A stretch of DNA of 60,474 nucleotides from a virus (IMGVR_UViG_3300045988_152007:1-60474), one strand, 5' to 3'. Positions 2,466 to 40,244 are shown, numbered from the stretch's first letter. Notes: generated from the letters alone by a model not told the origin. Translations and numbers: made by a program.

Positions 2466-2540
2466 TGGCACCGGCTCTCAGAGTCGAACTGAGACTTGCT
2501 GATTTAGAGTCAGCTGAGCTAACCGTTACCCAAAGCCGGA
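2466..2540 (-). tRNA. amber suppressor tRNA, anticodon CUA (reads UAG); U1:U72 mismatch and G73 resemble tRNA-Gln identity
   Basis: Acceptor TCCGGCT/AGCCGGT, D-stem with G-U pairs, anticodon stem GCTGA/TCAGC, loop CTCTAAA, T-arm CTCAG-TTCGACT-CTGAG, G73, CCA encoded. Confidence 0.7.
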
Positions 2541-4708: not shown

Positions 4709-4749
4709 AAATTATAAGTAATTAATAATTTCTTATTGATTACTTATAT

Positions 4750-4778
4750 ATTATATAATATTTTTTTTTAAAATTCAA
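4750..4778 (-). promoter_or_regulatory. sigma70-type promoter TTGAAT-N17-TATAAT (minus strand)
   Basis: Motif family member; lies directly upstream of tRNA-Gln. Confidence 0.6.
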
Positions 4779-5096
4779 ATTTACAAGACACATTAAATAA
4801 ATTAACTATTATCCTACCCTTTGGATGAATTATCTTAACAGAGATAATATTGGACTTGAACCAATAACACATAGATTTTATCTAATATTTGCTGCGTGTG
4901 TCTTTACTGTTAGTTATTTAACCCCGACAACCTACTAACAAAAGGGATGGTTCAGGGGAGGTTATCTGTGTCATCTAGACCTCATTTTTTCATTCCAATA
5001 CAAATCTACTTAGGGAGATCAATCCTTTTCAATTATGTATCTTTAACAGAACCCTGATGGTCCGAGTGGCGAGACTTGAACTCACGGCCTCTTGAT

Positions 5097-5575: not shown

Positions 5576-5618
5576 CCCAAATCAAGCGTTCTACCAAACT
5601 GAACTACACCCGGATATA

Positions 5619-5638
5619 AAGGGTAATTAATTACCCTT
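5619..5638 (-). terminator. hairpin AAGGGTAATTAATTACCCTT downstream of gene 5644..6009
   Basis: Perfect 8-bp stem immediately after the stop codon. Confidence 0.4.
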
Positions 5639-5643
5639 ATTTA

Positions 5644-6009
5644 TTACATTTCCTTAGCGAGTCTTTCAACTACGCTATCATACATTTCCTTACCTCTTGC
5701 ACTATCATTGAAATACACAGTCATATCATCATAATACTTCTGTGCCTTCTCAAGTGCCTTAGCAGCTTCATCAAGCTTCTTAGTAGCACGCTTCAGACGC
5801 TGAGAACTGACCTTCGCCTGGCAACGTGCTGCGGCAAGCTGCTTACCCTTTTCAGTATCAAATGTATCCTTCGGATCACACTTGGCTACACCACGCACAG
5901 TCCTACCAGCATAAGTAGAAACTGCAACAACCTTATACGGCGTACCATCTGCCTTAGTGGGAATAAAATACTTGTACTTATCCAGAGAATATTCCATAAC
6001 TTTTAACAC
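5644..6009 (-). CDS. hypothetical protein (121 aa), GC-richer than neighbours
   Basis: ORF track; promoter motif directly upstream. Confidence 0.6.
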   Translation of the reverse strand: MLKVMEYSLDKYKYFIPTKADGTPYKVVAVSTYAGRTVRGVAKCDPKDTFDTEKGKQLAAARCQAKVSSQRLKRATKKLDEAAKALEKAQKYYDDMTVYFNDSARGKEMYDSVVERLAKEM

Positions 6010-6047
6010 CTTTTTCTCATTTATTTTTTTCTTTATTTTGTATATAT

Positions 6048-6076
6048 ATTATATACTATTTTTTTAATTTTTTCAA
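6048..6076 (-). promoter_or_regulatory. sigma70-type promoter TTGAAA-N17-TATAAT (minus strand)
   Basis: Motif family member. Confidence 0.6.
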
Positions 6077-6191
6077 ATAAAAGAAAATAGCCAAGATTAG
6101 AATTGCCAGCAGTTTTGAGTCCCGGCCATCTAGAATCTATTAACTAGAAACGGTTTTATTAACTATCCAATCTTGGCTAATGGTATAATAA

Positions 6192-6839
6192 TTAAGCATA
6201 TTTCCATTTAAACTTAGCAGCTGTATTTCGTTTACATTTGCATACTTCAGAAATATGTTGTTTTATAGTAGTCATTTTACAATTAGTTAATTTATTTTCT
6301 ACCATAAATTTAGCTGCTTCAGTTGTTGATGGAAAAGTCCTTAAATAATTATCATTTAAATCATACATATTAATTATTTTCCCATACTTATTTTGAACTA
6401 TTTTAGCATTAGGAATAATATCAATTTTATATAATTTTAAAATTTTAGAAACTGAATCTTCACTAATATTTAATTGTTTAGCAGTATCTACAATACATTG
6501 TAAATTCTTATATGTTTCGCATACTAAATCATAGTCAATATATTGTTTGCCATCTCCGCCAATTGTAGCGTTATATCCATATTTAAAAGAACCTAATTTT
6601 TCAATCCAATAAACTTCTTTATCATTAAGTTCTTCTAATGGACATTCCTCTAACTCTTTAATAGAAAAATTTTCTGAACCATATTTATTCATTGCGTCAT
6701 ATAAAGGACGTTTTTCACATCTAGGTTTTTTATAATCTTTAAGATGTTCTTTCCAACGTTCCTAAATATTATTTTTTACTGTTTTACCAACATAAATTTT
6801 TCCATTAATATTATTTGTTATCTAATAAATGTATGCCAT
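6192..6839 (-). CDS. GIY-YIG homing endonuclease (I-TevI-like) with two in-frame TAG
   Basis: N-terminus MAYIYQITNNINGKIYVGKT...ERW matches the I-TevI GIYQI...KVYVGS...KRW motif; a TAG sits at the conserved Q (6822-6824). Confidence 0.8.
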
Positions 6840-6918
6840 ATCTAAATGACTCCTTTAATAAATAATTGTGAAATTAGTTAAAACACTATCGCCACGAGAA
6901 GGCTTTCACATAATAGCG

Positions 6919-6991
6919 AGCCGGCAGACGGATTCGAACCCCCGACCTATTGATTACAAATCAATTGCACTACCAACTGTGCTATGCCGGC
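6919..6991 (-). tRNA. tRNA-Thr(TGT)
   Basis: Acceptor GCCGGCA/TGCCGGC, D-arm GCACAGTTGGTAGTGC, loop TTTGTAA, T-loop TTCGAAT; no CCA encoded. Confidence 0.7.
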
Positions 6992-7031
6992 ATTTAAGAG
7001 AGAATTTATTTTTCCCTCAATTTCTATATAT

Positions 7032-7060
7032 ATTATATAAAATTTTTTTTAAATTTTCAA
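7032..7060 (-). promoter_or_regulatory. sigma70-type promoter TTGAAA-N17-TATAAT (minus strand)
   Basis: Motif family member. Confidence 0.6.
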
Positions 7061-7932
7061 ATTATACAACATAAATAATGTGCTAATTCTAATTGATATT
7101 CTTGCTTAAAGAAAAAAGGAACTATTGAAAAAATTATAGTGAATACATCATTTCGACCGCTTAATTTAAAGCTGTTATAAAATAATGGTAAATATTTTTC
7201 ACATATTTCATTATAAGTAATTTGATCATTCTTATAATGAAAATTCTTTAAAGGATCATCACTTTTTAATGTTTTACATTTTAAAATATCTTTTGAAGTT
7301 ACTTCTTCATATAAAGTTATTTTAGCAAATCCATTATAATGTTTATATAAATATGGACAAATAATCGGGCAAGGGTCATTGCATAAAAGTTCAAATCTAT
7401 TTCTTACTTCTATTGGAATTGATTCTAAAAACTTAAAATCTTTTATTTGTCTTCGAGGTAAAACAATTTTATCATATTTATTTAAAAGAGACAAATAATC
7501 TGTATTTTTATTTGAAGCTATTATACTTCTTTTAATTTTAAATTTAGGATATTTATTTCTTATATATTCTTCTAAAATAGAGGAAGAAACTAAAATTGAA
7601 TTATTTTCATTTTCACATAAGGAAACGATTTTATTACAATATCTATCATACAAGTCTTCTTTTGTTAATAATGGATTTGTTAAGGTTAAAGCAATTTCTA
7701 TATTATTTCCATAATAAAAATCAATAATTTCTTTTATTTTTTCTAATGAAGGTTGATAGCCTTGATTGACAGTTCCTCCATTCCAAATCATATTTGGGAA
7801 TGTATCGAATATACTCTCTATAGCTACATTAAAATTGAAACATTCTGGAGCTGTCTATTGTAATTCTAAAAGAGTTTTATATATATTAAATCCAGTATAA
7901 AATCCTGGACAATTTAAATTTATTTTTTTCAT
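7057..7932 (-). CDS. hypothetical protein, paralog family A (NIWNGG / FYxG motif), one in-frame TAG
   Basis: ORF 7057..7791 extends upstream through a TAG to ATG ~7932 (MKKINLNCPGFYTGF...). Confidence 0.55.
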
Positions 7933-8269
7933 ATTTAAATTATATAATATTTTTTACTTTTTATCAAATATAAAATTTTGAATAATTTGTATTCTCCATT
8001 TTTTGAATTAACTAATTTTGATATTTTGTGTTAGTAGGAGCATTTAAATAAAAATTTTTTATTTCTGAAATTTTATTTAAAAGTTCATTTCTTTTTACTA
8101 TAAAATCAAAATTACTGTAATTATTAAAATTATTTTTTATATCTAAAATATATGGTTTATACATTCCTAGCTATAAACTTTGTTTATAACTTTTTGTTTT
8201 ATAATATTCAATTATTATTATTAGATCAATAAAAGATTTATAAATTAATTTATAATAATTTTTTAATTT

Positions 8270-8710
8270 ATAATAATTTTCTCGTAATCCAGTCTAAAAT
8301 AATCTATTACTTTCATTAATTAATTGAGAATAAATGACTGGTAAATTTTCTTTAACTATATCTTCATTAATTTTTTTTATTTCTAAAGTAAATTCATTAT
8401 CACTTAAATAATGATAAGGGAATAACCATCTATAATAACTATAGTTATTATTATAAAATAAATTATAAATAAAATGTTCTCCTGTATAAATCCGCCTTGA
8501 AGGATTCCAATTTATAATATTAAATTTTTTCATAAAATTATTAGACTATTCCTATGGAATTAAATTTAAATCAAAATTTGAAATTTTTTTTAATTCTTTT
8601 TCCATATTTATAAAAGAAGAATAGATTTCAATAATATCTATATCACTTGTGTTATTATTTATTCCATGCTGGTAAGAACCATCGATCAATCCATATAAAA
8701 AATAATCCAT
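8270..8710 (-). CDS. hypothetical protein (~146 aa) with in-frame TAGs
   Basis: Frame containing ORF 8294..8533 extends to ATG 8708-8710 (GAGGT upstream) and downstream to TAA 8270-8272. Confidence 0.5.
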
Positions 8711-8712
8711 AG

Positions 8713-9348
8713 TTACCTCAATAGTATAGTTAAATTTTTTGTATGTTCAATTAATTTTTTTATTTTAAATATTGTTAAATGAAAAGCCCATTTATCAGGA
8801 TAATGGTCAGTATCATGTTTATAATAAAATTTTGGTAAATGATAATATTTAGGATATAAGATATTAAATATTTCTTCATCTGTTTGAAAATTTATATAAA
8901 ACTATAATATTGATTTATATAAATTTTTATTTGGCTTTATTATAGCTATTCCGCCACTTAATCGTCCTTTAGATTCCTAGTTATCATATACTTCATAAAA
9001 ACTACCATCTGGATAATCAAAAATATTATCAATATTTTCAGCAATTAAAATATCAGCATCTATAAAACAAATTTTTTTGTACTAAGTTAAAGTATAAATA
9101 AAAAATTTATTAGCGGTATCTTTATAAAAATTAGAATCTCCACAAAAATAAATTGGCTATTCTATTATTTTATAATTTATATTATTTTTTTTTAAAATTT
9201 TAAAATAAATATCTGATACATTATTAGTAGTTAATAGTAAAAATGGATATTTACTATTAACTTTTTTTAATGAAAAATATAAGGCACAAGCACATTTAAT
9301 ATATTTATCAGTTGTTGCAAGTGTTACAAAGCAGTATTTGTCGTTCAT
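8713..9348 (-). CDS. family 8 glycosyltransferase-like protein, 4 in-frame TAG
   Basis: N-terminus CFVTLATTDKYIKCACALYFSLKK; downstream DADIL and GGxA motifs appear when TAG is read through. Confidence 0.55.
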
Positions 9349-10249
9349 CAGTGACTCCTAAAATATCTGTTACACAATGTTCAATAAAATCATATTGGTA
9401 TTCTGGTAATAATAAATATCGAGCATAAGTACATATATTATCAATATAATTTAAAGAACGTCCCTCTAATTTATACTATTCAATACCAAGAGGATAATAC
9501 AAATTATAAATATTATCTAATGTTACTGTATTCTTATAAGCAATAACTTCTGGGCTATTAACACTTTTAACTGCTTTACAATTTAATGTATAAGGTTTTC
9601 CATAAGATAAAGCATATTCACTATTGATTTTATAATGATTAATACGATTTGGACAATTAGGAATACAAATTGCATTACATAATAATTCAATTTTATTTTT
9701 TAAATTTAAAGGAATTTGTTTTAAAAAATCTATATTAGAATTTAAATCATAATCTAAACAAATAAATTTATATTGAGCTTTCTTAATTTCATTTAAACTT
9801 TGTTCTAAATTTGTAATTCTTTTAGTGGTTGAAGAAATAAAATTATACTTATTATATTTATTTCTAATATATTCTTCTAACCCTTCATTATTAATTACAA
9901 TTTCATTCAATCCATTATTTCCAATAGCTAAAATGAGATTTTCAAAACGATTATTATAATTTTCTTTAGTTAATAACTAATTTGTAAAAACTAATCTGAC
10001 CGCAATATTATAAGAATTATAAAAATTAAAAATTTCCTCAATATCTTTCTTTAAAGCCTAATGAGTTTTAAAATTAGTAAAAGTTCTGCCGCCTTCCCAA
10101 GAACAAAATTGGAAATTTCCATAACAAGCATGAATTGTAATATTTTTATTAAAAATTTCTGGCTATTTATTAAGTTGTTCAATTGTTAATTTATTTAATT
10201 GGTATGTTTCATACATACCTGGTAAATTAAAATTAATCATTACTTATAT
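9308..10249 (-). CDS. hypothetical protein, paralog family A, in-frame TAGs
   Basis: ATG 10247-10249 (MINFNLPGMYETY...); the frame includes ORF 9476..9910, which ends in TAG. Confidence 0.5.
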
Positions 10250-10250
10250 T

Positions 10251-11099
10251 TTATCTCCTTATAAATAATTCTTGAAAGGCATATTCTTTAAATTCTGGTT
10301 TAATAAAATAATTAATTAAAAATAGACCGTATTCATTTTCATTGTTAGAGAAATAATCTATTAAAAAATTAGTGATACCCATAGGGATATAAATATCTTT
10401 AATTTCTTTAATCGTTATATATTGTTTATTATTTATAGAATTTTTACAATTACAAAATGTAGGTTCAAATGTATAATTTAATATATTATTATTTTCTACT
10501 ATTGGACATTGAAAATAATTTTTACATTTTGGATTACAAAGATTATTAACTGGAATTATAATATTTTCTTTATTATTAATTTCATTTAAATATTGCTGTG
10601 AAGTTTTAAACTCGTTAGGGATTATTATATATAATGGATTTAAATTTTGATGAAAATTATTTATAATATCGGGAGTAAGAGGATATAAGATATTAGCATT
10701 TTTAGAAATAACATATTTCAAATTAGGAAATTTGTTATTTATATAATTTAATAAATCTAAATTACTAATTTCAAAAATGCAATTATTTGGTAATAATTTT
10801 AAAATTACATTACTCATTACATCATAGAAATCTGATTTTTCTAATAAAATATTAGAAAAATCTAACCACAAAGGTAAATTACTTTGCTTAATTATTAATT
10901 CTATATTAGGATACAATAAAGTATCACCAACCATGTTATTTAATCCTCCATTCCAAATATTATAAGGGAATGTCCCTCTAATATAGGAAAAAACTATGTT
11001 TTTATCAAGAAGCCAATTAGTATGGCTTCTTGATAAATTAATAAATTTATCATTTACAGTATGAAAATAGTAAAAATCAGGTAAGGTAAATTTAATCAA
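10251..11099 (-). CDS. hypothetical protein, paralog family A (282 aa)
   Basis: ORF track; FPYNIWNGG motif shared with 7057..7932. Confidence 0.65.
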   Translation of the reverse strand: MIKFTLPDFYYFHTVNDKFINLSRSHTNWLLDKNIVFSYIRGTFPYNIWNGGLNNMVGDTLLYPNIELIIKQSNLPLWLDFSNILLEKSDFYDVMSNVILKLLPNNCIFEISNLDLLNYINNKFPNLKYVISKNANILYPLTPDIINNFHQNLNPLYIIIPNEFKTSQQYLNEINNKENIIIPVNNLCNPKCKNYFQCPIVENNNILNYTFEPTFCNCKNSINNKQYITIKEIKDIYIPMGITNFLIDYFSNNENEYGLFLINYFIKPEFKEYAFQELFIRR

Positions 11100-11102
11100 T
11101 TT

Positions 11103-11360
11103 TATTCTCCTATAGAATATAGCTAATTTGTTAATTTATTTAATTCTTTTGAATAATCTATATTTAAATCTTTTAGTCGTAAATCCTAATTCTATAATAA
11201 ATTTGCTAAGGTATAAATTATTTTTTTATTGACTTCTGGATTTGGTTCTTCTAAAGTAACCATATTATTGTATATAACAAATAATAAATCCATATATCCC
11301 TTATTTTCTTTTATAATATTATTTGTAATTTCTTTTAAAATATTATCTAAATTATCCATT
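11103..11360 (-). CDS. small hypothetical protein (MDNLDNILKE...) with TAGs
   Basis: Hand translation; start overlaps the stop of the upstream gene. Confidence 0.3.
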
Positions 11361-12641
11361 TAAATCATACCCCAATTCTATAGCTATGTTTTCTATTACT
11401 TTTGGTAATATTTTTTGATCTTTCGCACTTTTCAAAACTCCAGTTTCAAAATATAATTTAAATAAATAATTATATTTTTCTTGAAATAAATTACAAACTG
11501 ATAAACAAGGGATAGAAAAATCACCATAAGTTTCTATCTAAGCTCCCAAACATCCTTTAATACAGACATCTCTACACCAGCATTCTAAACATCTTGGAGC
11601 ATAAACAGGGTTAAAAGATTTCATTCCTATATAAGCTGTGGCATTATCACTTATTAAATCAATTATCTCTGTTTTTTCATCATTTATTTTAAAATGTCCA
11701 CCAATTAAATGATTATAACAAGTACGATGACAAGGAACGATAGCTAAATCTCCAACCCTTATATGGACAGTAGACTACAATGCACAGCTTATTCGGTTAT
11801 GTCTGTCTTCTTTATCTGATAAATTCATTAATCGTATAGGATCTCCATTGTGCTCATTAAATGTAGGAGTATTATTAGCCCCATCCCCTTTAAACATTGC
11901 ATAAGCCATAGTATTAATATCATTATTGCAATCATTCAATCTATCTTCAAAGATATGTTTTAAGAATTTTTTATAATTCTCTATAGATTCTTGAGTCCAA
12001 TTATTATTTCGAACTTCTAACATATAAGGAGTTTTCTACCATGAATTGTATTCTTTTAATTTCTTTTTAAACCAATCATAAGTTTTAATGGCTTTATCAA
12101 CATTTTGGCTAGAAATCATAGGATGGAAGCCATCATTATTTTCTGTAGCAAATTCAAATAATTTATTAAAATATTCATCATTTAAATCTTTATGTTCTCT
12201 AAATTCAGTGCTATACGGCCCATCAGTAGAAAATGAAAAATGAATTTCTACATTTATATCTTTCATCTTTTGGATATATTTTTTTATTTTTATTACTTTT
12301 TCATTATCAGAAATAAAACTACCATTAGTAGGTATTACTAGTTTACCTTTTTCTTTTATTTTATAAGCAAATTCATACCATTTTTTTAAATACGGAAAAA
12401 ATACATCTAGTATTTCAAAAATTAATCCATCATAAAATAAGTCTCCGGCGAATAATGACCATTCTAAAGGTTTTATTTGTTTTTTATCAAAATAATCTAA
12501 TAATAATTTTAAATTATCTAATATCTAAGAATTAGAAAAATGTTCTGGATATAATTCTTTGCCATAATTAGTTATATAACAATAATCACATTTTTGATTA
12601 CAGTCTTGTCTTATAATTAATTCTAATATTTCATTTTCCAT
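11352..12641 (-). CDS. radical SAM / SPASM-domain protein (anSME-like peptide-modifying enzyme type), in-frame TAGs
   Basis: N-terminal CNQKCDYC and C-terminal Cys-rich CHRTC...CLECWCRDVCIKGC; merges ORFs 11775..12023 and 12036..12266. Confidence 0.55.
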
Positions 12642-12721
12642 CTTTTTTAATTCATGATTAAAAATAAAATTCTAAAATAGAATATTTTCTTCCTATTGGA
12701 AATCAATAGACGTTGTTATCA

Positions 12722-14155
12722 TTATTTTTCCTCCAAAACTTCTTCAATAATTCCATTACAATATCTTCTTAAAAATCCACTATCTCTAAAGAAATAAGAA
12801 CCAGTACTGATTAAACTGTTAAAAAAGCAAGAATGTATAGGTACTAATAATAATGCTGCTTTCATTAAAAATTTATCATCATTAAATTTTTGACTTATCT
12901 AATGCACTTCTCGTAAATTACATAATAAAGAAACAATCTAATTATATACATAAAAAAAACTAGATACAGATAAAGTTTCAAATAAAAAACAACAATTTTT
13001 TATATCTTCATCTTTATCTTTCAATGGATTTATATAATTATGATGATTTGCGGCAAATTGCTTAATAATCCCAATTTTATCATTAGTATTAATATATTCT
13101 GGATTAGTATCATAAAGAGAACTCTAACAATTTACTAATGTTCCATCATATAAAAGTTTTAAGCTTCCTGTTTTTTCTCCGCAATATAAGAATGGAGTTA
13201 AGTTTCTATTATAATTCTTTAATTCTTTATTAGAGAATGCTAAAACTTTATCAAGAGCTTCATCTAAATTAGAACATTCCAAATTTTTTAATAAAAATTT
13301 TTTTGCTTTTCGAGGTAAACACAATAATCCTTCAATAGAGTCTTTATCTGGATTATTAATTTCTGGATAATGTTCTCCAATTGATTTACAAATTTTTATA
13401 AAATTACTCCAATTAATACCATCAATGCTAGAAGTATTAATAGGTAATTCGCTAGAGAAATTTATAGTATTTTTGATAAAAACAGATTTATTTAGATTTA
13501 AATTAGTTAAATATTGAATTTTTTCATTAGCCTAAATAAAATACTATTCTATTTCTTTGTAATTATTATTAAAATGATTTATGAGTTCATTACTAATAAC
13601 TCCATGAGTATTAAGAGCAATAGTAATATTATTAAAACGAATTGTATTTAAAGTTTCTATTAAATATTTTAAATTATTATATACTACTTTAGAATTAGCT
13701 CTTCTTACATTATCAGTACTATAATCTCCATCATAAGAAAACTAAATACAAATAAATGAATGTTTTTTAGTTAAATTATCAAAAGTTTTTAAAAAATCAA
13801 TTATTTTATCAGTATTAGCCATACCATTAGTAGAAGTAAAAAATTCATTAATATTGGGACATAATTCAAAAAAATCTTTTAAATTTTTAGTAAAATGTTC
13901 TAATACTAATGTAGGTTCTTGACCCCAAAAACTTATTTTATGGATATTTAATGGATCAACTTCTAATTTTTTCATAACATTTTTAATATTCTATAAATAA
14001 CTTCCATCTTTAAGAGCCTTTATAGTCTATTCTTGTAACTATTTACTATATTCATTTACAGCCTAAGCTGAATGACAATATTTACAATTTAAATTACATC
14101 CACAAGCTCCAATAATAGATAATTCTTCTATTGAAAAATCCGATATATATTTCAT
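12722..14155 (-). CDS. radical SAM protein 2, in-frame TAGs
   Basis: GACGCNLNCKYCH cluster near the N-terminus; ISFWGQEPTL glycine-rich SAM motif; merges ORFs 13124..13324 and 13742..13975. Confidence 0.5.
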
Positions 14156-14175
14156 TCCTTTTTCTCCTTTAAATG

Positions 14176-14691
14176 TTAAGTGTGACTAGAACCGTAATGA
14201 CTAGAGCATCCATGAGATGTACACCAGGTTTGATTAACCCCTGACCAATAGGAAGAATGATAACCTGAACCATCATGAGAAGAATTATAAGAAGTATCCC
14301 ATCCTGCTCCATAATTAGAACTATCCCAACTACTATTATATCCACTACCTCTATGGCTAGCATTATAACTCGCATCATGAGCGCAAGTATCATTTATGCT
14401 TCTAATTGTAGTAGTAAATCTATTAAAAATAATAGGACTAATTAAATCTCCTGCCGAAGGAGGATTTTCACTAATATTTGCTCTTGAACCAACATAACTG
14501 CTACTGGAAAAAGATTCTATATACTTATTTAAATTCTGAGCTAATTGAGCCATAGCTTGTGTTGACTATCCTCCAGGAGTCGCTTGAAAATCACTCTAAC
14601 TAGGGAAAAATTTTTTTCTTGCGGTATTTAAATTAGTAAAAATAGTCTAAATATCACTCCAATTTATTTTAGAGTTTGAACTAATTGCCAT
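14176..14691 (-). CDS. Ser/Gly/Tyr/His-rich small protein with Cys-containing C-terminus (possible modified-peptide substrate)
   Basis: ORF 14176..14553 extends through TAGs to ATG 14689-14691 after GGAGG. Confidence 0.5.
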
Positions 14692-15745
14692 ATTTTTCCT
14701 CCTCGTATTTTATAAAATCAATATACTCTTTGTTAATAAATTGTTTAATTAGTTTATTATTATCAAGTATATGATTTCCTTTATTAAATAGACTATTTAA
14801 ATTAAATAATACAGTATTATTTAATTTAATAAAATCTTCTTTTTTTATTTTATTTAATAAATCTTTATAAAACAATGATAACTTATTAAACAAAATTTTA
14901 TCATTAATTAAAATTAAACAAATAAGACTTAAACAAATTGCTTCTTCTTGTTTTATATCTTTTAGATATTCTTTGTCTTTATCAGTTACTTCTTCTATTA
15001 TAGATAAATTTACAATAATTTTATTAAAAATATGTTCGAAAATAAAATGATTATTTTCATATTTTTTATTTGTTAAATATTGTCTATAAAAATAAGTAAA
15101 AACAATTAATTCATTTATTGTCATATATAAAAAATTAATATCTTTACCCATACTTTCATTATTTCTATTATATACGTAAATAGGCTATTCTAAGAAGGGA
15201 ATTGCACCATTATAAAAATCAAAAATCTATAATGATAAAAATCTATCTTCATTATAAATAAATTTGCCATAAGAAAAATTATTTTTTATAAAAAATTCTC
15301 TATTATATAAATAACTATGAGCGTCATGGATAAATTCATTTTTATCATAGGTCTATCCATTTACAATTCCATAATTATTATTTTCAGCATATATATATAA
15401 ATTTTCTAAAGCCTTATTATCATAAAAATAATCATCACTATCTAAACAGAAAAAATACTTATTGAAGCTATTATTAATTCCTAGAGTCCTAGCTGATGCA
15501 GGGCCTGATTTAGTTTTCTAAGTATCTAATAATATTATATTGTATATATTATTATAAGTTTTATAAAATTCATATACATATTTTTTATCTGGAGAATTAT
15601 CACTAATTAAATAGATTACACAATCATTAATAATACTTTGTTTAAAGACAGAATCTAAACATTTCTAAAAATATATTTTATTTATTGTATAAAAAGGAAT
15701 TATAATATCAATTTTTCCTTCGTTGCGCTTTCTAAATGTCCTCAT
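14681..15745 (-). CDS. family 2 glycosyltransferase-like protein; may be the C-terminal part of a fusion with the upstream radical SAM domain
   Basis: IIIPFY...DSDDYF (DXD) motifs; frame is continuous with 15746..16645 when TAG is sense. Confidence 0.45.
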
Positions 15746-16645
15746 TTTATCAGGAGCATACCAAGAATCAACGTTATTCCAAGATTTCTTTTTTGAAAAA
15801 TCCTAAAAATTAGAAAAATCAACAAATTTTTTATAATATTCATTATAATTTGTTAAGAATAATTCTTTTTCTGTTTTAGTATATTCATCATAAGTTTTAG
15901 TCGATTGATCCCAATCAACCACATCTCCTGGCCGACAATATTTACATATATTTTTTTCACATAATTTTAAATTCTATAAATCTTGTAAATTTGTTTTTTC
16001 TGTTAGTTTTATAAAATCTTTATTTTCTATTAATGGAATTTGTTTAAAAAAATAATTACAAAAATTATTTATGTGTGCCCCAAACTGACAAAAATATATT
16101 TTAAAATCTTTTAATGTAAAGCAAGGAATCCTATTTGGACAACTATATATACGAGTTTTATTATCTTGTTTACCTAAAGGGTCAACCAATGTCTAATCAA
16201 AGAAAAATCTATCATTTAAATATGAGATATTTTTATTATTGCTAAAATCTTTGTAGTCTTGATTAGGATATTTAGAAATACTTATATGTATATTTAATTC
16301 TTCTAATTTTTTTAATTTTTTTGTATCATAATTATTTAAAATTATACCATTAGTTAATATCTTTATTTCTATCTCTGGGAGAATATTTCTAGCTATCTAA
16401 CATAATTCTATTAAATTAGGATGTAAAAATGGTTCTCCCCCTAATAGCATTAAAACTTTAATAGAAGGCAAAGTTTTTTTTACTAATTTTAGCTAATTTT
16501 GAAAATCTTCGTAAGTAATAAAAAATGGAGAAGCCAAAGGAGAAAAATGATTACAATTATTACATTGTAAGTTGCAATGGTCTACTAAATGAATTTCTAA
16601 TTCAAATCCATCAAAAACTGTAGGCCAAAATGCTCTAGTAGGTCC
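15746..16645 (-). CDS. radical SAM domain protein 3, possible GTG start
   Basis: LVDHCNLQCNNCNHF and MLLGGEPFLHP motifs; same frame as ORF 15974..16189. Confidence 0.4.
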
Positions 16646-16746
16646 ATCTCTATACTAATTTATTTTATTCACCTTCTTTTTTTATTATTATATAAAAAAA
16701 ATGCTTGAAAAGCAAATTTTAAGAACAAGCTTTTCAAGCATTGATG

Positions 16747-17070
16747 TTAAACAAAATGAATAATTAAATTATTAATTTGGACTCCATTATCATTCATAAT
16801 AAAAATTTCATCTACTTTATTATAATTATTATATTCCCAAATTAGTTCTTCATTATCATTATAAACTTTTATATTTTCAATTTTATCTAATTCCATAAGC
16901 CATCCTAACATTTGTTTTATATTATAATTAGATGGCACATTTCCTCTAGCTGCTTCTAATAAAAACATTGTTTTTGGCTAATCATCAGAAGCAGGATGGT
17001 AAGCTCGTTCTGTAACAAAACTTAAATTATCAATAGGTTTATCAACTAAATTATTAATTATAATTTTCAT
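16747..17070 (-). CDS. hypothetical protein (~107 aa), one TAG
   Basis: ATG at 17070 after GGAGAAAG; includes ORF 16747..16968. Confidence 0.5.
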
Positions 17071-17103
17071 TTTTCTTTCTCCTTTTATTTTTTATTAGCC
17101 CCA

Positions 17104-17532
17104 AGCAACTGGGATAGGTTTCCATGAATCGCTTGATGATGTACGATATTTCAATACTCCATTACTAGAAATATCTACCCAAATAAGAGCAGATGAAGAA
17201 GAAGGAGCAGTAGTCCCAATATAAATCTAATTGTTTGACGTAAAACCAACAGTAGGAGTTATAGTTGGATTACTATTATCCACATAATTTTTAGTAGCTA
17301 TATCATTACCAGATATTGGGACATAGTTATTCGCCATCTAAATTTTACCATTGGCGCTCATTACATTTACTTCATCTTTATAAAGACGCTATTCAAAATC
17401 ATCGTCTATAATTACTAATGATTGTTCTTCATTTAACTAATTATCCTCTTTTAATTGTCTATATAAAGCTCTAGTAGGGATTTGATTGATAGAAAGAGTA
17501 TTTAAATTTGTACTAGTTTTTGAAGCCATTTG
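17104..17532 (-). CDS. small tail-associated protein sharing a C-terminal domain with 21898..22890
   Basis: ATG ~17532 after AGGAGG; shared IYIG..LIWVD..KYR..VAW motif. Confidence 0.45.
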
Positions 17533-17572
17533 TATACCTCCTTCTTACTTTTTCTTTCTTATATAAATAAAA

Positions 17573-17607
17573 AATAGGACATAATAATTTAATTATTATG
17601 TCCTATT
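17573..17607 (-). terminator. hairpin AATAGGACATAATAATT...AATTATTATGTCCTATT followed by a T-run on the minus strand
   Basis: 17-bp stem; sits downstream of the tail-fibre gene and between the promoter 17667..17695 and the next gene start. Confidence 0.5.
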
Positions 17608-17666
17608 CAAGAAAGGGGGTGAGTTAAATGCTGTAAATAAAAAATTTATTTCTTATTTACATTTAT

Positions 17667-17695
17667 ATTATATAAAATAATTTTTTAAAAATCAA
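17667..17695 (-). promoter_or_regulatory. sigma70-type promoter TTGATT-N17-TATAAT (minus strand)
   Basis: Motif family member. Confidence 0.45.
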
Positions 17696-17707
17696 ATTTT
17701 ATAATGC

Positions 17708-20428
17708 CTAACTCCATGTGTTTGCGGCAGTTTTTGCCCATATACCTTTTATTTTATGCCAGCCGGTCAAGGTAACAGCAGGTCCGCCAGTGAAGGTGCC
17801 TGTTCCGGCGTTTTTATAGAATACTTTATTTATTTTATCCCATAGACCATAAATATTAGTTGTAGTTTTAACTGGAATAAAATCGCGGACTAAAGTGTTT
17901 CCATCATAAATTTGACAAGAATATAATTTTGCACTTAAAAAGTATTTAGCGGTTCCAACATCATTTAATGCCAATAAAAACATATTAGTTGTAGCATTTA
18001 CTGTGCTAGAAGTATTGGTAATCATAATATTATTAAATGAACATATATTTTTATTTTTATCAATATTTGTTATTTGCATAACAGTAGGAGTTTCAGCAGT
18101 TAATGATGAACCAAAATAATCACTACGATATAATGTAGCGGCTGGAATTGCAGCATTATAAGCTTGAGAAGCAGTAGGAAAAGTAGCATTTCTTGTGCCA
18201 AAAAATGCACTCCAAGTACTCCAAGACATTGGTTCAGCTTTCATAATAGTGCGAGTTGTAGCTTTGGGAATAAAATTACTATCAATATACTATGTGCCAC
18301 TAGACTATATATATTCAATCGGTGTTCCTATTGCTGCAATAGCAGATTTTTCTGTGCCTGCTGTAAAATTGCCACCATTTTCATCAGTATAAAATTTAAG
18401 ATTAACTTTATCCCATAAGCCAGCTTTCCCATCAGATATCCTTCTAGCTGGGATGAAATCACGAACTAATGTACCATTATCATATATTTTACAAGAATAT
18501 AATTTCATTGAAGCTTTATTATAATTGCCACCATTATTTACACTAAATAAATATAAATTATTTCCATCCTTTGAGAAATCACTAGAATTTGGAGTAACAG
18601 TTATTTTGCTAGTGTCAATGCTCCATATATTATTAGTATTATTTGAAATATATTTTCTTTTCCCAGTTAATTCTGCAAGCGTTTTATTATTACTTCCATA
18701 ATAAGCATACATAGTCGTATTTTGTCTCCACCAAGAAAAATATGAACCACTAGTATAATCACCTAGTATCATAACCCATCCACTCGCAGCAGATACATCT
18801 ATATCAGCTTCAACCTTTAGGTTTTTTGAAGCTTTAATGCCAGTGTCAATATATTGTGTACCGGTACTTTCAATGTATTCTAATTCAACTAATCCACTAG
18901 AAATAGTAGTACTACTTCCAGTATTTACGAACATTTGTACTGGTTCTTTCCAATTATTCGAAGTAGTTTTCACTAAAGTATTTCCAGAACTAGCTTCTAT
19001 AACGGTAATACGTATATAGCCATTACCTGCATGGCCTGTTTCACTTGTACCTGTTGGAGAAATAAATGCAGCATTTCCTGCTAATATAGTAGCATTAGTT
19101 AAATAATAAGATGAATTCAATAAACAACCAGAAGGATAATAAGAGGCTGAGCTGGAAGTGTACATATAACCAGAACCACCACCTCCAACACCGATAGCAC
19201 CACCGCCGCCATACCAGCCGCCGCCCCCTCCTGAGCCATAATAAGTGTTTGAACCACTATTATAATTTCCACCTTGTCCGAAGCTTCCTGCAGTAGTATA
19301 ATTAGAATAACTAGTATTTGCTGCACCACCCTAGGTTTGGCTACCACCACCACCATACCAGCTGCTACCACTAGATGAGTCTTGATTATTATATGTCTTG
19401 CCTGATATTCCTCCACCAGCAAAACCAGCCAAACTAGTATAGCCACTAGAACCACTGCCACCACCAGCGACTAAAACTCTAGCATATAAAGAATCGACAG
19501 CAATGCGAATATCTGTGCCGCCGCCACCGCTTCCTCGACTATTAACTGAGGTAGCAGAACCGCCTCCATTGAATCCTCCAGCAGTGGTTGCTCCATTTGA
19601 ATTATAAGTAGTTCCATTAAGGCCCTATCCACCGGTATATAAATATAAATTAGTTTTCTTATTTAGAGTTATAATTCCTTTACTATAACCGCCTTTACCG
19701 CCAGGCTAGGAAGTATTATTAGTTCCATTGCCTCCCTAGGCGCCCCAGCATTCTAATTGATACTATCCTTTTGGAAGAATTACTGATTTCATAGACCCAC
19801 TATAAGGACAATTTAATATATCACCAGTCTATATTTTTGTAGGAGTTGTAACAGTTAAATCATATTTATTAGGAGCTTCATATTGAATTGTTTTATTACC
19901 AGCAAAATATTCAATATTAGTATTGCACCATTCCTGAGTAGGTTCATTACCTGTGCCGAATGCAGCAGTTAAATCAATAAGCATAGCATCATCAATATAT
20001 GCTACTGTATTTCCCACCATGCCTTCAAAATCAAATCTAAATTGAGCTGTCTAATTATCATTCCAGTTAGCACGTACATTATGCCAACTTAATCGCTGCC
20101 ATTGATTTAATTTAGTTTTATCTACTTTAGCAATACCTACTAATGGTTCTGCTATTGGCCAATAACATTGCATTTCAGAACATACATTAACAGTTTCATA
20201 AAAATAAACACTTATATAATATATATGATTTTTTCTGATAGCATATGTGTCAGAGGTTACAATTAATGATTTAGAACTTGAGGTAGATGTGACTTTTAAG
20301 CTATAAGAGCCGGAATGTTTAGGAGAGGTGGCGTAACTAACTGAGCAAGCTGAATTAGCAGTCCAACCTGTCTTTTCAAAACTTGGATTAGTTAATAAAT
20401 TAGTTAAAGTAATTGTTTGTTTTGCCAA
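17708..20428 (-). CDS. large tail fibre (907 aa): N-terminal CBM-like domain, Gly-rich region, two C-terminal repeats (LYSC.IYD.GTLVRDFIP...GLWDK.N..FY); many in-frame TAG
   Basis: 2721 nt, exactly in frame from ATG 20428 to the stop at 17708; joins ORFs 20051..20428, 19829..20020, 18305..19165 and 17708..18244. Confidence 0.6.
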
Positions 20429-20443
20429 TTAAATCAACTCCTT

Positions 20444-20882
20444 AATTTGTATCATATTGTATCCAAATATCGCCGATATTACCATCTGATGCTGTTGGTT
20501 CTGCAGTAGATATTAATATTGGGCGTAAATATTTTACTGATGCAGTAATTGGAGTAGTGCCATTCCAAGTCATTGGTGTAGTTATTCCTGTTGGCTATTC
20601 GATTGTTACTGACGGAGACCAAGTATTAGTAGAAGTTAAGGTTAGATATTTAGTATTCGTAGTAGAATAACCTCTATTACGGAAATCTCTATAATAAAAT
20701 TTTATAGTATTACTACCAGTAGGGATTTCAGTTAGCATATAAATATCTGAATTAAATACTACAATAATATCTTTACCACTGTCCCAAGCATCTTTAATTT
20801 CTTTATAAGTGGTAATATCTTTAGTTGCGATAAATACGCCACCTGCATTTTCAATCTATTCTATAAGTTTAGGTTTAGACAT
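20444..20882 (-). CDS. hypothetical structural protein (~145 aa)
   Basis: ATG 20882 after AGGAGG. Confidence 0.4.
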
Positions 20883-20895
20883 TTAAAAACCTCCT

Positions 20896-21882
20896 TTAAT
20901 TATTAAATTTAGGAATCGCTATATAATAATAAGTATAACCGTTATTATTGAATATACTAGTATAATAACTACTAGCAGCAGTAATAATAACTGATTTTGA
21001 ATTCCAAGTAAAGCTAACATAAGTGCCATTATTGTTAGGAAATGGGTATTTCATTCCTTGTATGCCACACATATAATTTTGAGCAGTACCAGCGTTAGTT
21101 TGCACCATAAATAGCATCAAATAAGCAGGTTCAAAATTAAAATTAAGAGTTTTTATTAAAGCATTATTTCCTATATAACTTCCAACATAAGCTCCTTTGA
21201 TACTTATATCGCCAGTCATTCCATTTACTGATCTAACCAAATGAGATGTAAGATATCCAGCATCATTAGTTAATTGACTTACTTTAGAAATTTTGTTATT
21301 CTATATCTACTAATCAACATATTTTTTATCGGTTAAGTCTCCAGTATTAGATGGTGTATAAGTACTATTCATAGTTATTTTGCCTGTTGTCATAATATTA
21401 TTTTTTGAGGTTAATAGCATTTCATTCATATCTTTTGGCAATTCATTTATTTTATTATCAATAGCCTAAATAGTATCATTTTTTATAATCTATAAGTCAT
21501 TTATCACATCTAATAAATAGTCTTCTGGTTCTATTCCTCGAATATTAAGAACAATAATACTATCATTAGCTGATGCCGCAAAATCTAATAACTTAATTTT
21601 ATTATCTTGAATTGTATAGTTTATATTTTTAGTCATTAATATACCATTAAAAAATATATTTAAATCTTCAGGATTTTCAACAGTAAAAGGAAAAGTAAAT
21701 GTTGTATCTCCTTCTTGTGCAATGAAAGAATATTTATAAGGAAGGTCATCTTCTTTATTTACAATGTATATTTCATCATTATTTACTTTTCCTTGTTTCA
21801 CCATTTGATTATAAATTTTCCTAGATGGAACTTTATTTATAACTAAAGAATCTAATAATTTTTCATTGTTTTTTATTTCCAT
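20896..21882 (-). CDS. tail protein (328 aa) joined across TAGs
   Basis: 987 nt in frame; joins ORFs 21490..21882 and 20896..21240. Confidence 0.55.
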
Positions 21883-21897
21883 CTATTATTCTCCTTA

Positions 21898-22890
21898 TTA
21901 ACTCCAAGCAACAGGTACGATAGTCCAAGTTCCAGTTTTAGATGTACGATATTTAAAAGTACCAGATGAAGATGTGTCAATCCATAATAAAGGTGCTGTG
22001 CCTGACGCGGGAGTAGATGAGCCAATATAGATTGGAAAAGTAGTAGCTGTACCAACTATTGAAGGTTTACTATCATCTACATATTTTTTTGTAGCAACAT
22101 CTCCGTTTGCTGAAGGAGTATAAGTACTATACATAGTAATCTTACTATCAGCAGCCATTGTGTTTGTTTTATTTAAAAACATAATATTGGAAGTATCCGA
22201 TGGTAATGTGGCAACTAAATCATTAATTTCTTTAAGAGTCTTTTCTTTCACAGTATTTATTTCATTAATTGATGAAGTTTTTATAGCTTGTATTTGTTTA
22301 ATTGCATCTTCTGCTTCTTTACCAAAATCAATTGCTGCAGCTCCTTCTATACCCATTACAGTAAGATAATCACCAGCTTCGGCTGTGAATCCAGCAAGTG
22401 TAATTACTTTACTAGATACTGTATAGTTATCTATCTCCCTCATCATTATACCATTATAATAAACAGTAAGTGCGCTACTGTCTTCAAAATCAAATGGAAT
22501 AGTAAATGTAGACTAACCTGCTGTTGCAGTAAATGTAAATCTATTTACTATATGGTCATTAGCGGCAACCTAGTCATCTACATATTTTTTATTTGCGGCT
22601 TCTGTATCGGCTGTTGGAGTTTTTAAATTAGTAATTGTTTTATTATTAATATTAATATTACCAGTCATAGTACCACCAGCAAGAGGTAAATATTTTCCAT
22701 TTATAGTATCTAAGTCATTAATAAAAACCAGATTTCCTACTTTAGTAGCTCCATCACCTATTTTTATTTTCTTTAAATCATCATATATAATAATTTCGCC
22801 TTTTAAGGGGACAAAATTAGTTGCTTTATCCCAATTAGCTTTTGTATCATGCTTCTAAATCATACGGCCTTGGAATGTATTATTTGCCAT
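21898..22890 (-). CDS. tail fibre protein with HylP-type N-terminal domain, 3 in-frame TAG
   Basis: 993 nt in frame; TAG codons at 22513, 22570 and 22855; GGAGGA precedes ATG 22888-22890. Confidence 0.65.
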
Positions 22891-23035
22891 TATATTTCCT
22901 CCTTAAACAAAAATATAGGGAAATAAATATTTTGAAAATAGTTCAAGATATTTATTTCCCTATATTAAATATCTTTCTCAATCATCTATTTTCAAAAGAG
23001 TAAAGATTATAATAAATAAGTTATCAATTTCAAAC

Positions 23036-33618: not shown

Positions 33619-33623
33619 ATAAA

Positions 33624-38281: not shown

Positions 38282-38932
38282 TTATAATGGTTCATTTCTA
38301 CCTGTGCCACTACATGTGCCAGTACAGCTTTTACATAAACCTGAACAACTTCCTCCACACAATCCAGTACAATCGTTAGCACAATGTCTTGTACAGCTAC
38401 CACTGCATCCACTACATCCTGTATAGCATCCACCTGAGCAAGAACCACTACATCCGCTACAGCTACCACTACAACTGCTTCGACATCCGCCTCTGCAAGT
38501 GTTTTGACAACCTCCTTGGCAAGTATTCTTACAACTACCTAAACAAGTTCCCTAACATTGTACTCCACAACTTTCGCTACAACTGGTAGAACATAATCCA
38601 GTGCAATAAGCTGAACATCCAGTATTCGAATCAGTTAATCCCATAGCTTGATAAGCTGTAATTTTTGCCTCTAATGTACTTAAATCATCATCTTTAATAA
38701 CATTTATATTTTCATTCTGATTTTCAATATTTATTGCCGCCATAGGTTCTACCAGTTTTGTTATGTGTTCTTTTGAAATAACTTTTCCATTATCAGGCTA
38801 AGTAGTATAATCATAAGAAGTCCCTCCATATGAACTTACACTACCGGTATATTTACGACGTAAACATTCAGCCTTTATTTTTTTCTTTAATTCATTGAAT
38901 CTATCAGAAGTTATTGTCGTTCCTATTTTCAT
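38282..38932 (-). CDS. Cys-rich repetitive protein (216 aa; about 30 Cys in the C-terminal 110 aa with GCSGSCSG-type repeats), one TAG; candidate radical-SAM substrate
   Basis: 651 nt in frame; AAGGAGA before ATG; contains ORF 38552..38743, which ends in TAG. Confidence 0.55.
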
Positions 38933-40244
38933 TTGTCATTGTCTCCTTTATTATATTATATTCATCCTAAGAGATAATTTTTAATGCTTTTTCCCTATCT
39001 CCATTAAATTTAAATCGTTTATTCGAGTTTATTTTTTTTAAAATAGAATTTAAATAATATAAAGAAGCTAGAACTGTAGCATAATGCATATCACAAATAT
39101 AAGTAACTCTTTTATTAACATTACCTGTTTCTTGATAATTATAAGCTGTACACCAAGAGCATCCTCCAGAAATTTCACAATCTAAACATTCTTGAGGAGA
39201 TTGACTAATAACTGTTATTTCAGATAAATCTTTTAATCTATTGATGGTTAAATTATCTTGGCCTATTCCCTAATAAATATCTCCAATATAATATTCTGGC
39301 TGATTACTTATGCTATCTTCCATATAACGTAAACATGGATAATATTTACCTTTCCAATTTAAGGCTAACATACGACCATTCCCGCCACACCAATTATCAT
39401 TAGATAAATTTTTACTTCCATCATTAATATAAAAAATAGATAAATAAACTTTATCCCACAAATCATTATTTAATAAATAATCAGCAATTTTTTTTAACTA
39501 ATAATATAATGTAGTGGCATGGTTAAGTTCCCAACCTTTTTCATACACACAATTTAGATTGATTTGACTATAACCATTGTTTATCATTTCTAAAACAGCG
39601 TCATATAAATAATCTATATTAAATGGAGAGATAGTCATTTTACTCCCAATCCATTTATTATAATTATGACTATAATGTAATGCGGCAGACAATGCTTTAT
39701 CATAACTACCACTACCATCAGGGAAAACTCTACAAGCGTCATGTAATTTTTTATTTCCATCAATAGAAATTGATAAACTTAAATTTTCATTATTTTTTTT
39801 AATATACTCTTGTACTTTTTGTTCAAAATATAAAATACCATTAGAACTAATTGAAATTTTATATTTAGTAGCCCAAGGATGCCGCAATTCAATCATTTTA
39901 TTAATAAAATAATCAGTAATCTAATCAATTAATTCAATTTCTAAAAATGGCTCTCCACCTATAAATTCTATTATTACTCCTGGTATTTTATAAGAATCAA
40001 TATAACCAATAATTTTATTATCTCTGGTTAATATCTAATCAATCATCTGTTTAGCTGTTTCAAAAGATAATTTATGTTTACCTTTATGCCCTTGATAACA
40101 ATAAGTACAATTTAAACAACAATCATCTGTAACCTAAAATGTTAATGTAAATACAGACTAAGAATTTAAACAATCTTCAGGATATAAACGACCTATAAAA
40201 TCAGAAAATTCTTCAGGAATGTGGCTTATTTTAGGAAATAACAT
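38904..40244 (-). CDS. radical SAM / SPASM-domain maturase-like protein (446 aa), in-frame TAGs
   Basis: CLNCTYCY, GGEPFL and a C-terminal Cys cluster (CGGNG...CLDCE..GGCSWC); 1341 nt in frame; joins ORFs 39498..39896 and 39270..39461. Confidence 0.6.

Follow-up and report, generated by a model that had tools for sequence, protein, structure and literature searches.

Radical-SAM and U32-like enzymes encoded beside a probable dedicated protein substrate in large Clostridia-associated phages

We analysed a 60,474-nucleotide stretch of DNA from a gut phage (IMGVR_UViG_3300045988_152007:1-60474; hereafter the window), in which reading TAG as Gln reveals one compact block of genes on the minus strand at 7057-17070. 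Its core comprises the gene for a small protein, SP, followed by genes for two radical S-adenosylmethionine (SAM) enzymes, rSAM2 and rSAM1, a short protein, p90, and two paralogous proteins resembling the U32 family. We propose that these genes constitute a cassette for post-translational modification, of which SP is probably the dedicated substrate. The core genes are, from the SP gene onwards:

14176..14691, minus strand: SP, the putative substrate protein, 171 residues (head, 14377-14691, residues 1 to about 105; tail, 14179-14376, residues about 106 to 171)
12722..14155, minus strand: rSAM2, 477 residues, a radical-SAM enzyme with a twitch/SPASM-like auxiliary-cluster region
11352..12722, minus strand: rSAM1, 456 residues, a radical-SAM enzyme with a complete seven-Cys SPASM motif and a conserved short N-terminal extension
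11102..11359, minus strand: p90, 85 residues, between rSAM1 and the U32-like pair
10251..11099, minus strand: U32-like paralogue C, 282 residues, TTG start, paired with paralogue B in nearly all core cassettes
9308..10240, minus strand: U32-like paralogue B, 310 residues, predicted (beta/alpha)8 barrel with conserved C192, C196 and C221

Under the standard bacterial code, the cassette region breaks up into many short open reading frames (ORFs). With TAG treated as a sense codon, ORFs of at least 100 residues contained 69.2 kb of sequence instead of 43.9 kb, and the longest ORF grew to 910 residues, compared with 596. Reassignment of TGA gave a much smaller gain, and that of TAA merely inflated the ORFs of this AT-rich DNA, the longest ORF becoming not appreciably longer. 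ARAGORN identified 13 tRNA genes in the window, among them a matching suppressor:

2466..2540, minus strand: suppressor tRNA with anticodon CUA

In alignments, positions 138, 344 and 419 of rSAM2, which are TAG codons in the window, are Q in 19-20 of 20 homologues, and position 395 of rSAM1, also a TAG codon, is Q in six of seven sequences. We conclude from the in-frame TAGs, the tRNA-CUA and the Gln columns that this phage uses genetic code 15, in which TAG is read as Gln. The possibility that the cassette ORFs are an artefact of recoding was rejected on the basis of their full-length, conserved homologues. The cassette ORFs from 7057 to 16450 contain 48 in-frame TAGs, with 0-12 per gene, and only that of paralogue C (10251-10934) has none. 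Many in-frame TAGs occur in the genes at 1 to about 44 kb and hardly any in those at 44.8-60.4 kb, which is the late/early pattern described for recoded phages (PMC10607447). Because of their TAG load, we infer that the cassette genes are expressed late: their translation would have to wait for an active suppressor tRNA. The tRNA genes lie at 1048-6991 and 31039-36676 and include an unusual tRNA-Phe(AAA) at 36116-36186.

These gene models retain the boundaries of rSAM2 and SP given in an earlier note on this DNA and correct two others. rSAM1 starts at 12722, not 12641, with an N-terminal extension that is conserved, and a third radical-SAM enzyme, fused to a family 2 glycosyltransferase (rSAM3-GT2), spans 14669 to about 16672, where a probable GTG start is found; the ATG at 16645 that had been taken as its start is out of frame. 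Paralogue C starts with TTG at 11099, and the Shine-Dalgarno sequence GAGGAGG precedes the ATG of SP.

Local hidden Markov models (HMMs) were run over 51 loci from IMG/VR and 10 from genome assemblies; loci carrying related cassettes are given L-numbers and members of the SP family P-numbers. The order rSAM2, rSAM1, (p90), U32C, U32B was found in about 40 loci from about 25 distinct lineages, and the recurrent full order is p110 (a further small protein), SP, rSAM2, rSAM1, p90, paralogue C, paralogue B. Seven contexts reached through rSAM2 homologues agreed in order: rSAM2 is preceded by a small protein with a tail and followed by rSAM1, a protein of about 90 residues and two paralogues of about 290 residues. 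In about 17 loci other than that of the window's phage, a profile of the SP head recognized an SP gene just upstream of rSAM2, and every locus inspected by eye had a tail-bearing ORF in the position directly upstream of rSAM2. In divergent cassettes, in which the SP profile fails, the ORF upstream of rSAM2 has the same design, with tails that bring it to 201-474 residues. p90 occupies its position in all seven of the first-studied cassettes as well as in L020/L069 and L066, and is replaced by a 227-residue ORF in the L018 group. L070 carries two full cassettes in tandem and L005 a second SP and rSAM2 (11685-13780); such duplicates suggest several substrates per phage.

Viral contigs that bear the cassette measure 15-201 kb, mostly more than 100 kb, and use either the TAG-recoded or the standard code. 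The cassette is also found on contigs of metagenome-assembled genomes, mostly assigned to Clostridia (Lachnospiraceae, Oscillospiraceae) and Erysipelotrichia. Clostridiales Family XIII bacterium PM5-7, an isolate in culture, has one copy at about 89-110 kb of JBNDKG010000001.1, a locus identical to a 113.7-kb IMG/VR provirus. Positions 7000-20200 of the window had no megablast match among GenBank phages.

SP had been described in the earlier note as a low-complexity protein of 171 residues in which a leader and core should be sought. It proved to be conserved rather than an isolated low-complexity ORF, and its design is precursor-like, with a head of 105 residues joined to a hypervariable tail. 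AlphaFold2 predicted the head to be a three-helix bundle (pLDDT 84-94) and the tail to be disordered (pLDDT about 40). An exhaustive HMMER search of 1.84 billion representative sequences placed at least 340 clusters (50% identity) in the family with E ≤ 1e-3, of which 170 had E ≤ 1e-10; a profile search based on word indexing gave 18 relatives. The 150 matches listed are 89-389 residues long, and the conserved domain begins at residue 1 in nearly all of them, with the motifs WSDI..LF..LNTAR.KF ... P..G.LI.P ... I..I...C. Among non-significant fold matches of SP in BFVD is A0A8S5UTL8 (Myoviridae sp. ctYA416, 200 residues), labelled 'Six-cysteine peptide SCIFF' by its depositors, which may be a deposited, mislabelled member of the SP family.

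The tails range from 37 to about 390 residues and are wholly different between lineages, with a shared composition in which F/Y/W/H make up about 25%. In the window, the SP tail is 26% FYWH, 28% S and 1% LIVM, and ends ...WCTSHGCSSHYGSSHT. Across 52 pooled tails, S accounts for 20.9%, F 14.1%, G 11.9%, N 11.4%, T 7.4% and Y 5.8%, and L+I+M make up 1.1% (3.0% with V) and K+E 1.8%. The modal spacing between aromatic residues is 4, in the context (G/S)-aromatic-(R/D/N/C)-(S/A/T)-S, with S, A and T enriched at +2; examples are SYRGSYDG, SNYGSHRSAYYS, SHRGSFFTSNN, GFGNSSFGNS, SFTSFNARHG, NGFRSSDFAD and NYTPTYSSNNN. Many tails end with two Cys 4-5 residues apart (WCTSHGCSSHY in the window, FCPAGFCPSGF or VCSAGYCPTNY in others), and P0313 has a Cys tail of CSHS type. 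Between P0038, the database copy used in place of the recoded window SP, and P0040, the heads are 88% identical and the tails 43%. No tandem repeat was found by TRF in the DNA of the SP gene. In its architecture, SP corresponds to a precursor with a long leader and a diversifying core. One member, P0186 (373 residues), has after its head and repeat tail a Hint/intein-like self-cleaving domain at residues 230-369 (Pfam Intein_splicing E 8e-8, just under cut-off), which hints at autoprocessing or ligation of the tail C-terminus in some lineages.

The clustering of three radical-SAM enzymes around the SP gene, claimed in the earlier note, is borne out by a CxxxCxxC motif in each; rSAM2 (31.1 bits) and rSAM3 (43.5 bits) exceed the gathering cut-off of 29.5 for Pfam Radical_SAM (PF04055), and rSAM1 (21.7 bits) does not. 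Despite this score, the CxxxCxxC motif and core of rSAM1 are conserved in eight homologues. rSAM1 carries CNQKCDYC and the SPASM pattern C-x10-G-x6-C ... C-x2-C-x5-C-x3-C ... C, the canonical form being Cx9-15Gx4C ... Cx2Cx5Cx3C ... C. All seven of these Cys are invariant in an alignment across 7-8 homologues or loci, in agreement with the SPASM-like Cys cluster noticed earlier, at an HMM score (TIGR04085) of 17.9 against a cut-off of 27. rSAM1 also has a weak full-length PapB-like match in NCBIfam. In rSAM2, the CxxxCxxC motif, C325-x12-G-x4-C343 (the first SPASM/twitch hairpin) and C443 are invariant and C466 nearly so. Its homologues form 37 full-length clusters of 31-75% identity, all of them metagenomic, and tblastn found no match to it in GenBank phages. 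In profile searches of the PDB, the nearest solved structures to rSAM1 were ChlB, 8vpo and CteB (E about 4e-3), and the nearest to rSAM2 was 8vpo (E 2.6e-7), followed by anaerobic sulfatase-maturating enzyme (anSME). 8vpo is cited in a structural study of radical-SAM cyclopropyl synthases (PMC10878394), and we take it to be TvgB, whose substrate is a repeat precursor. On these profile matches, rSAM1 and rSAM2 are, among solved structures, closest to peptide or protein maturases.

The U32-like proteins belong to a set of three paralogues in the window that the earlier note recognized as related and assigned to an unknown NIWNGG family. They share 27-34% pairwise identity, and two methods now give their fold as a U32 TIM barrel, the best structural match carrying a U32 peptidase annotation. 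With the paralogue alignments as queries, PDB profile searches returned only noise. From the modelled fold, they appear to be remote U32-fold proteins and not members of the family by the curated test. The paralogue family comprises more than 252 clusters at 90% identity. Three Cys are invariant across types A, B and C (C192-x3-C196 ... C221), further Cys are near-invariant in type B, and by analogy with U32 enzymes we predict that the paralogues bind a 4Fe-4S cluster. tblastn with U32B against GenBank phages found only three unannotated faecal contigs. A distant U32B-like branch (26-37% identity; L038-L063, for example L040 and L060) occurs without the two radical-SAM enzymes, sometimes beside YcaO, and may be a different U32-based system.

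UbiU and UbiV act on the aromatic ring of a ubiquinone precursor, and their first step converts a phenol into a catechol, the same transformation as that of Tyr into dihydroxyphenylalanine (DOPA). They form a heterodimer in which each protein binds a 4Fe-4S cluster through four Cys (PMC6747719), and prephenate is their oxygen donor (PMC10990095). RlhA and TrhP hydroxylate RNA bases (PMC5727448 and PMC6599085). The U32 proteins of established function are oxygen-independent hydroxylases, and very few other members have an established molecular function (PMC6747719). We found genes of the prephenate pathway near some cassettes: a 3-deoxy-D-arabino-heptulosonate 7-phosphate (DAHP) synthase gene lies two genes after U32B in the PM5-7 prophage (L069/L020, 11451-12314; NF006421, 391.6 bits against 335), and a chorismate mutase gene lies within 10 kb of the cassette in L012 (18938-19231) and L053 (17711-17986). 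A reading of the DAHP-synthase-like gene as a KDO8P synthase was ruled out by its NCBIfam scores (391.6 versus 104.9 bits). By analogy, the few cases of linkage to shikimate genes are suggestive of a hydroxylase role for the U32-like proteins.

Several accessory genes accompany the core in the window, together with p110, which is separated from the SP gene here by rSAM3-GT2:

7057..7932, minus strand: U32-like paralogue A, 291 residues, an accessory third copy, 31-34% identical to C and B
7964..8710, minus strand: p248, 248 residues, an accessory protein, possibly a Pol-beta-type nucleotidyltransferase (GS...DID motif, by eye)
8713..9348, minus strand: GT8-like glycosyltransferase, 211 residues, accessory, with a DAD motif (PF01501, 23.6 bits against 24.3)
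14669..16672, minus strand: rSAM3-GT2 fusion, about 667 residues, a single ORF, accessory and outside the core
16747..17070, minus strand: p110, 107 residues

The accessory repertoire varies between cassettes and includes rSAM-GT2, GT8, the third paralogue, the nucleotidyltransferase-like gene and YcaO. The possible fusion raised in the earlier note is indeed one ORF: its radical-SAM domain (motif CNLQCNNC, residues about 28-146, about 16235-16591) reaches 43.5 bits for Radical_SAM and 26.8 for Fer4_12, and its GT2 domain (residues 323-455, about 15308-15706; DSDD within CLDSDDYF) reaches 58.9 bits for PF00535 against a cut-off of 23.3. Its relatives are fused in L009 and L069, split in L012 and reduced to GT2 alone in L010. 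The GT8-like gene of the earlier note is also present, with its DAD motif, at a Pfam score that is borderline; related genes occur in L005, L006 and L011, and the source database records PF01501 on L006 (weakly) and L011. p248 has weak Pfam matches to Polbeta (E 0.039) and NTP_transf_2 (E 0.088), and a homologue adjoins the SP gene in L016. Paralogue A, an optional type, recurs in L012, L020/L069, L047, L057, L061 and L070. YcaO, a hallmark of RiPPs (ribosomally made, post-translationally modified peptides), is encoded in the cassettes of L010 (107 bits in Pfam), L012, L017 and L064. p110 homologues lie upstream of the SP gene in L007, L009, L012 and L069; inspection by eye adds L018 and L034. 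SP, p90 and p110 had no match in Pfam or NCBIfam, and no cassette protein matched PHROGs.

The cassette (about 6000-18000) is low in G+C (0.19-0.26, against 0.29-0.40 in its flanks), and is low relative to its flanks in six related loci as well. Tail-fibre-like genes occupy one flank (17095-30185, including a Gly-rich protein of 824 residues and matches to tail-fibre PHROGs), and the other holds tRNA-Thr (6918-6991), a GIY-YIG-like gene (6192-6839) and an HNH-like gene (1703-2149). Homologues of the window's fibre genes adjoin the cassette in L009, L015, L016, L021, L023 and L071; other neighbours are dUTPase-like and RuvC-like genes (L018 group) or DAHP synthase and terminase genes (L069). 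We therefore rejected an obligatory linkage to tail fibres, since fibre genes adjoin the cassette only in some lineages and DNA-metabolism or packaging genes do so elsewhere. Its varied neighbours and low G+C content make the cassette look like a mobile accessory module and not a fixed part of the tail. Homing-endonuclease-like genes, recognized by eye from GIY-YIG/HNH motifs, are interspersed with tRNA genes at 6192-6839, 1703-2149 and 4150-5551 (minus strand), a short way downstream of the cassette. Hairpins with a T-run lie on the minus strand at 16690-16745 (after the p110 gene, by eye) and 17572-17608 (after the 824-residue fibre gene, by scan) and may delimit transcription units around the cassette. 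A promoter scan gave 121 sites, with 114.6 expected in AT-rich DNA.

A second pair of genes in the window encodes a target protein and its maturase from the CXXX-repeat system:

38282..38932, minus strand: CXXX-repeat target protein, 216 residues, an N-terminal domain followed by a long (CxxxC)n tail (TIGR04114, 20.6 bits against 20)
38904..40244, minus strand: radical-SAM maturase of the CXXX system (TIGR04115, 431.3 bits against 350)

Among matches to the SP head profile in the window, the CXXX target ranks second, albeit weakly (E 0.012). The pair follows a block of genes for p275, an M28 peptidase, p475 and p102, and the aromatic-tail cassette adjoins the homologous block in L007, L011, L012, L064 and L072, mostly directly after p102, and a modified form of it in L005/L006. 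The two systems are adjacent in L016, and a CXXX maturase gene follows U32B in L023. On the basis of this shared site and adjacency, the two systems act like modules of a single functional class that replace one another or lie side by side. The window also encodes three paralogues of 475-572 residues (phrog_18912; 40929-42356, 44847-46490 and 50788-52506, minus strand) with Cys-rich, zinc-ribbon-like C-termini, one of which belongs to the conserved block beside the usual site of the cassette.

That the cassette is a dedicated modification system, with SP as its substrate and the two auxiliary-cluster radical-SAM enzymes and the U32-fold pair as its core, is well supported. We give a probability of roughly 0.6 to the fuller statement that it is a self-contained, horizontally mobile post-translational modification cassette whose dedicated substrate is SP, and the best reading is a RiPP-like system that matures a protein-sized substrate. 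The SP head would serve as a long leader, docking SP on the enzymes, and rSAM1 (the SPASM enzyme) and rSAM2 would install repeated radical cross-links along the tail. Candidate cross-links are aromatic-to-C-beta cyclophanes (at aromatic-X-S/A) and/or Cys thioethers at the CxxxxC end. By analogy with UbiU/UbiV, the U32C/U32B pair would hydroxylate aromatic rings in an oxygen-independent, prephenate-dependent manner, and GT2, GT8 and, in relatives, YcaO would add lineage-specific decoration. Searches of Pfam, NCBIfam and PHROGs found no leader peptidase or exporter in the conserved core, so the product probably stays protein-sized, and since tails reach about 390 residues it may be a modified protein, not a small peptide. 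It would probably be a rigidified, protease-resistant polymer, released at lysis or carried on the particle, for which adhesion, host range or antagonism are candidate roles.

Several observations weigh against this proposal. Its chemistry (cross-links, hydroxylation, glycosylation) and the role of the product are predictions. rSAM1 falls below both the Pfam Radical_SAM and the SPASM thresholds, and none of the named RiPP maturase equivalogs in NCBIfam that we tested (PapB, SCIFF/CteB, XyeB, YhhB, FxsB, HxsB/C, Nif11-type and CbpB) reached its cut-off, the best scores being 16-33 bits against 268-519. No RiPP recognition element (RRE) was found with Pfam, NCBIfam or PHROGs, which have limited sensitivity for this domain. 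Some tails have Gly at +2 from the aromatic residue (for example SYDGSYDG), which excludes a C-beta cyclophane at those sites, so that cyclophanes cannot be the sole chemistry. The assignment to U32 is purely structural: the paralogues remain below the Pfam threshold for PF01136 (18.5 against 22.4 bits for the best family member; the window protein has no match), and their Cys spacing differs from the published CX6CX15CX3/4C (or CXnCX12CX3C, UbiV). Shikimate genes accompany the cassette in only three lineages and could equally supply aromatic amino acids. The SP head model had no significant fold match in BFVD, which neither supports nor opposes incorporation into virions. The earlier note had likened the layout to a RiPP or glycosylated-peptide maturation cluster, and the RiPP-like likeness held up in the tests applied: the precursor beside maturases, the YcaO of relatives, the solved relatives of rSAM1 and rSAM2 and the CXXX pair agree with it; no specific RiPP class and, in the conserved core, no RRE, leader peptidase or exporter was found to complete it. 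In profile searches of the kind that the note put forward as a check, GT2 passed, and SPASM, GT8 and the named maturases scored below cut-off.

The main rival is a classical secreted RiPP, in which SP would be a multi-core precursor whose head is removed and whose repeats are cut into small cyclic peptides, serving as a bacteriocin-like weapon or signal at lysis. The leader/core-like architecture and repeated units would suit such a pathway, and PMC12957482 provides a precedent for proteases that cut repeat precursors uniformly after radical-SAM cross-linking. This rival is also favoured by the M28 peptidase gene, which belongs to the conserved block at the usual site of the cassette and directly follows U32B in L005/L006, and by P0186, which ends in a Hint self-cleaving domain. 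However, the conserved core has neither protease nor exporter, the window cassette lies about 25 kb from the M28 gene, and folded heads of 105 residues with tails of up to about 390 residues, irregular repeats and no conserved cleavage motif are not what such processing would lead one to expect; we regard it as doubtful. A protease could also be supplied by the U32-like pair itself, acting as peptidases that trim the head or digest the Gly/Ser-rich tail, and not as hydroxylases. The annotation of the best structural match as a U32 peptidase and the absence of any other maturation protease from the core would favour this, whereas the family members of established function (UbiU/UbiV, RlhA and TrhP) are Fe-S hydroxylases, the paralogues form a conserved pair with conserved Cys as in UbiU/UbiV, and genes of the prephenate pathway are adjacent in three lineages. 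We consider a peptidase role unlikely.

It is very improbable, in our estimate, that the enzymes act on a sugar, nucleotide, cofactor or host surface polymer and that SP is an unmodified structural or adhesive neighbour. Glycan chemistry would fit the glycosyltransferases, the nucleotidyltransferase-like gene and rSAM3-GT2, and tail-fibre genes flank the cassette in the window and several relatives. The glycosyltransferases, though, are accessory genes that many cassettes lack, and it is SP, rSAM2, rSAM1 and the U32 pair that remain linked; the SPASM motif of rSAM1 is typical of peptide and protein maturases, which are also its nearest relatives, and the CXXX pair displays the same logic of a target encoded beside its maturase.

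If SP is indeed the substrate of a dedicated modification cassette, large phages infecting Clostridia of the gut and rumen carry a widespread toolkit for heavily modifying a dedicated, rapidly diversifying protein. RiPP logic would then extend to protein-sized, phage-encoded substrates, and U32 enzymes would gain a possible protein substrate. The copy in the cultured PM5-7 prophage makes the system accessible to direct testing. A bolder and rather improbable version holds that the U32 pair are the first protein-directed, oxygen-independent, prephenate-dependent hydroxylases, converting Phe/Tyr of the tail into phenol/catechol (DOPA-like) groups that the radical-SAM enzymes cross-link, and yielding an adhesive for the anoxic gut that is sclerotised or resembles mussel glue. 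The hypervariable tail would in that case tune attachment to host cells or mucus.

We compared the cassette with known systems. It resembles RiPPs in which radical-SAM/SPASM enzymes act on repeat precursors (the triceptides of XyeB, YhhB, FxsB and GrrM, His-Xaa-Ser, and the poly-cyclopropylglycine of TvgA/TvgB), which likewise have a substrate gene beside radical-SAM enzymes with auxiliary clusters, and a conserved N-terminal part followed by short aromatic-centred repeats with a small residue at +2; the NCBIfam models of such systems match here weakly. It differs from them in its scores (16-29 bits against cut-offs of 300-500), its two radical-SAM enzymes, folded 105-residue heads and tails of up to about 390 residues, its carriage by phages and its U32 pair. 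The CXXX-repeat target/TIGR04115 system, reportedly defined in silico by Haft and Basu in 2011, also pairs a target having an N-terminal domain and repeat tail with an adjacent radical-SAM enzyme and shares a genomic site with the cassette, but its tail is Cys-based, not aromatic, and it has one radical-SAM enzyme and neither a U32 pair nor glycosyltransferases. No experimental characterization of the CXXX system was found in the literature searched. Like UbiU/UbiV, RlhA and TrhP, the U32-like proteins have a TIM barrel, conserved Cys including CX3C, side-by-side paralogues and, in some lineages, prephenate-pathway genes nearby; in contrast to them, the phage proteins have a similarity below the Pfam threshold and a different Cys spacing, and the enzymes themselves are known to act on a quinone precursor and on RNA bases, not on any protein. 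The sublancin locus of prophage SPbeta encodes a phage-borne glycocin with the GT2 SunS and, compared by description, is alike in its phage-carried peptide modification, GT2 and Cys-containing substrate, but it lacks radical-SAM and U32 enzymes, and its substrate is a short peptide whose leader is cleaved and for which there is a dedicated exporter. QhpD/QhpC and anSME, both weakly matched here, show that a SPASM enzyme can modify a protein-sized substrate that is left intact, although theirs is a single target site or a few thioethers and not a hypervariable repeat tail. The literature searched contained no report of radical-SAM maturases combined with U32-type Fe-S enzymes, no U32 enzyme in a RiPP-like cluster and no phage-encoded radical-SAM RiPP. 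In having a radical-SAM/SPASM maturase beside a repeat-bearing precursor, the cassette is of a known kind; its novelty lies in the substrate family, the U32-like pairing, the protein-sized hypervariable aromatic tails and the spread in large Clostridia-associated phages.

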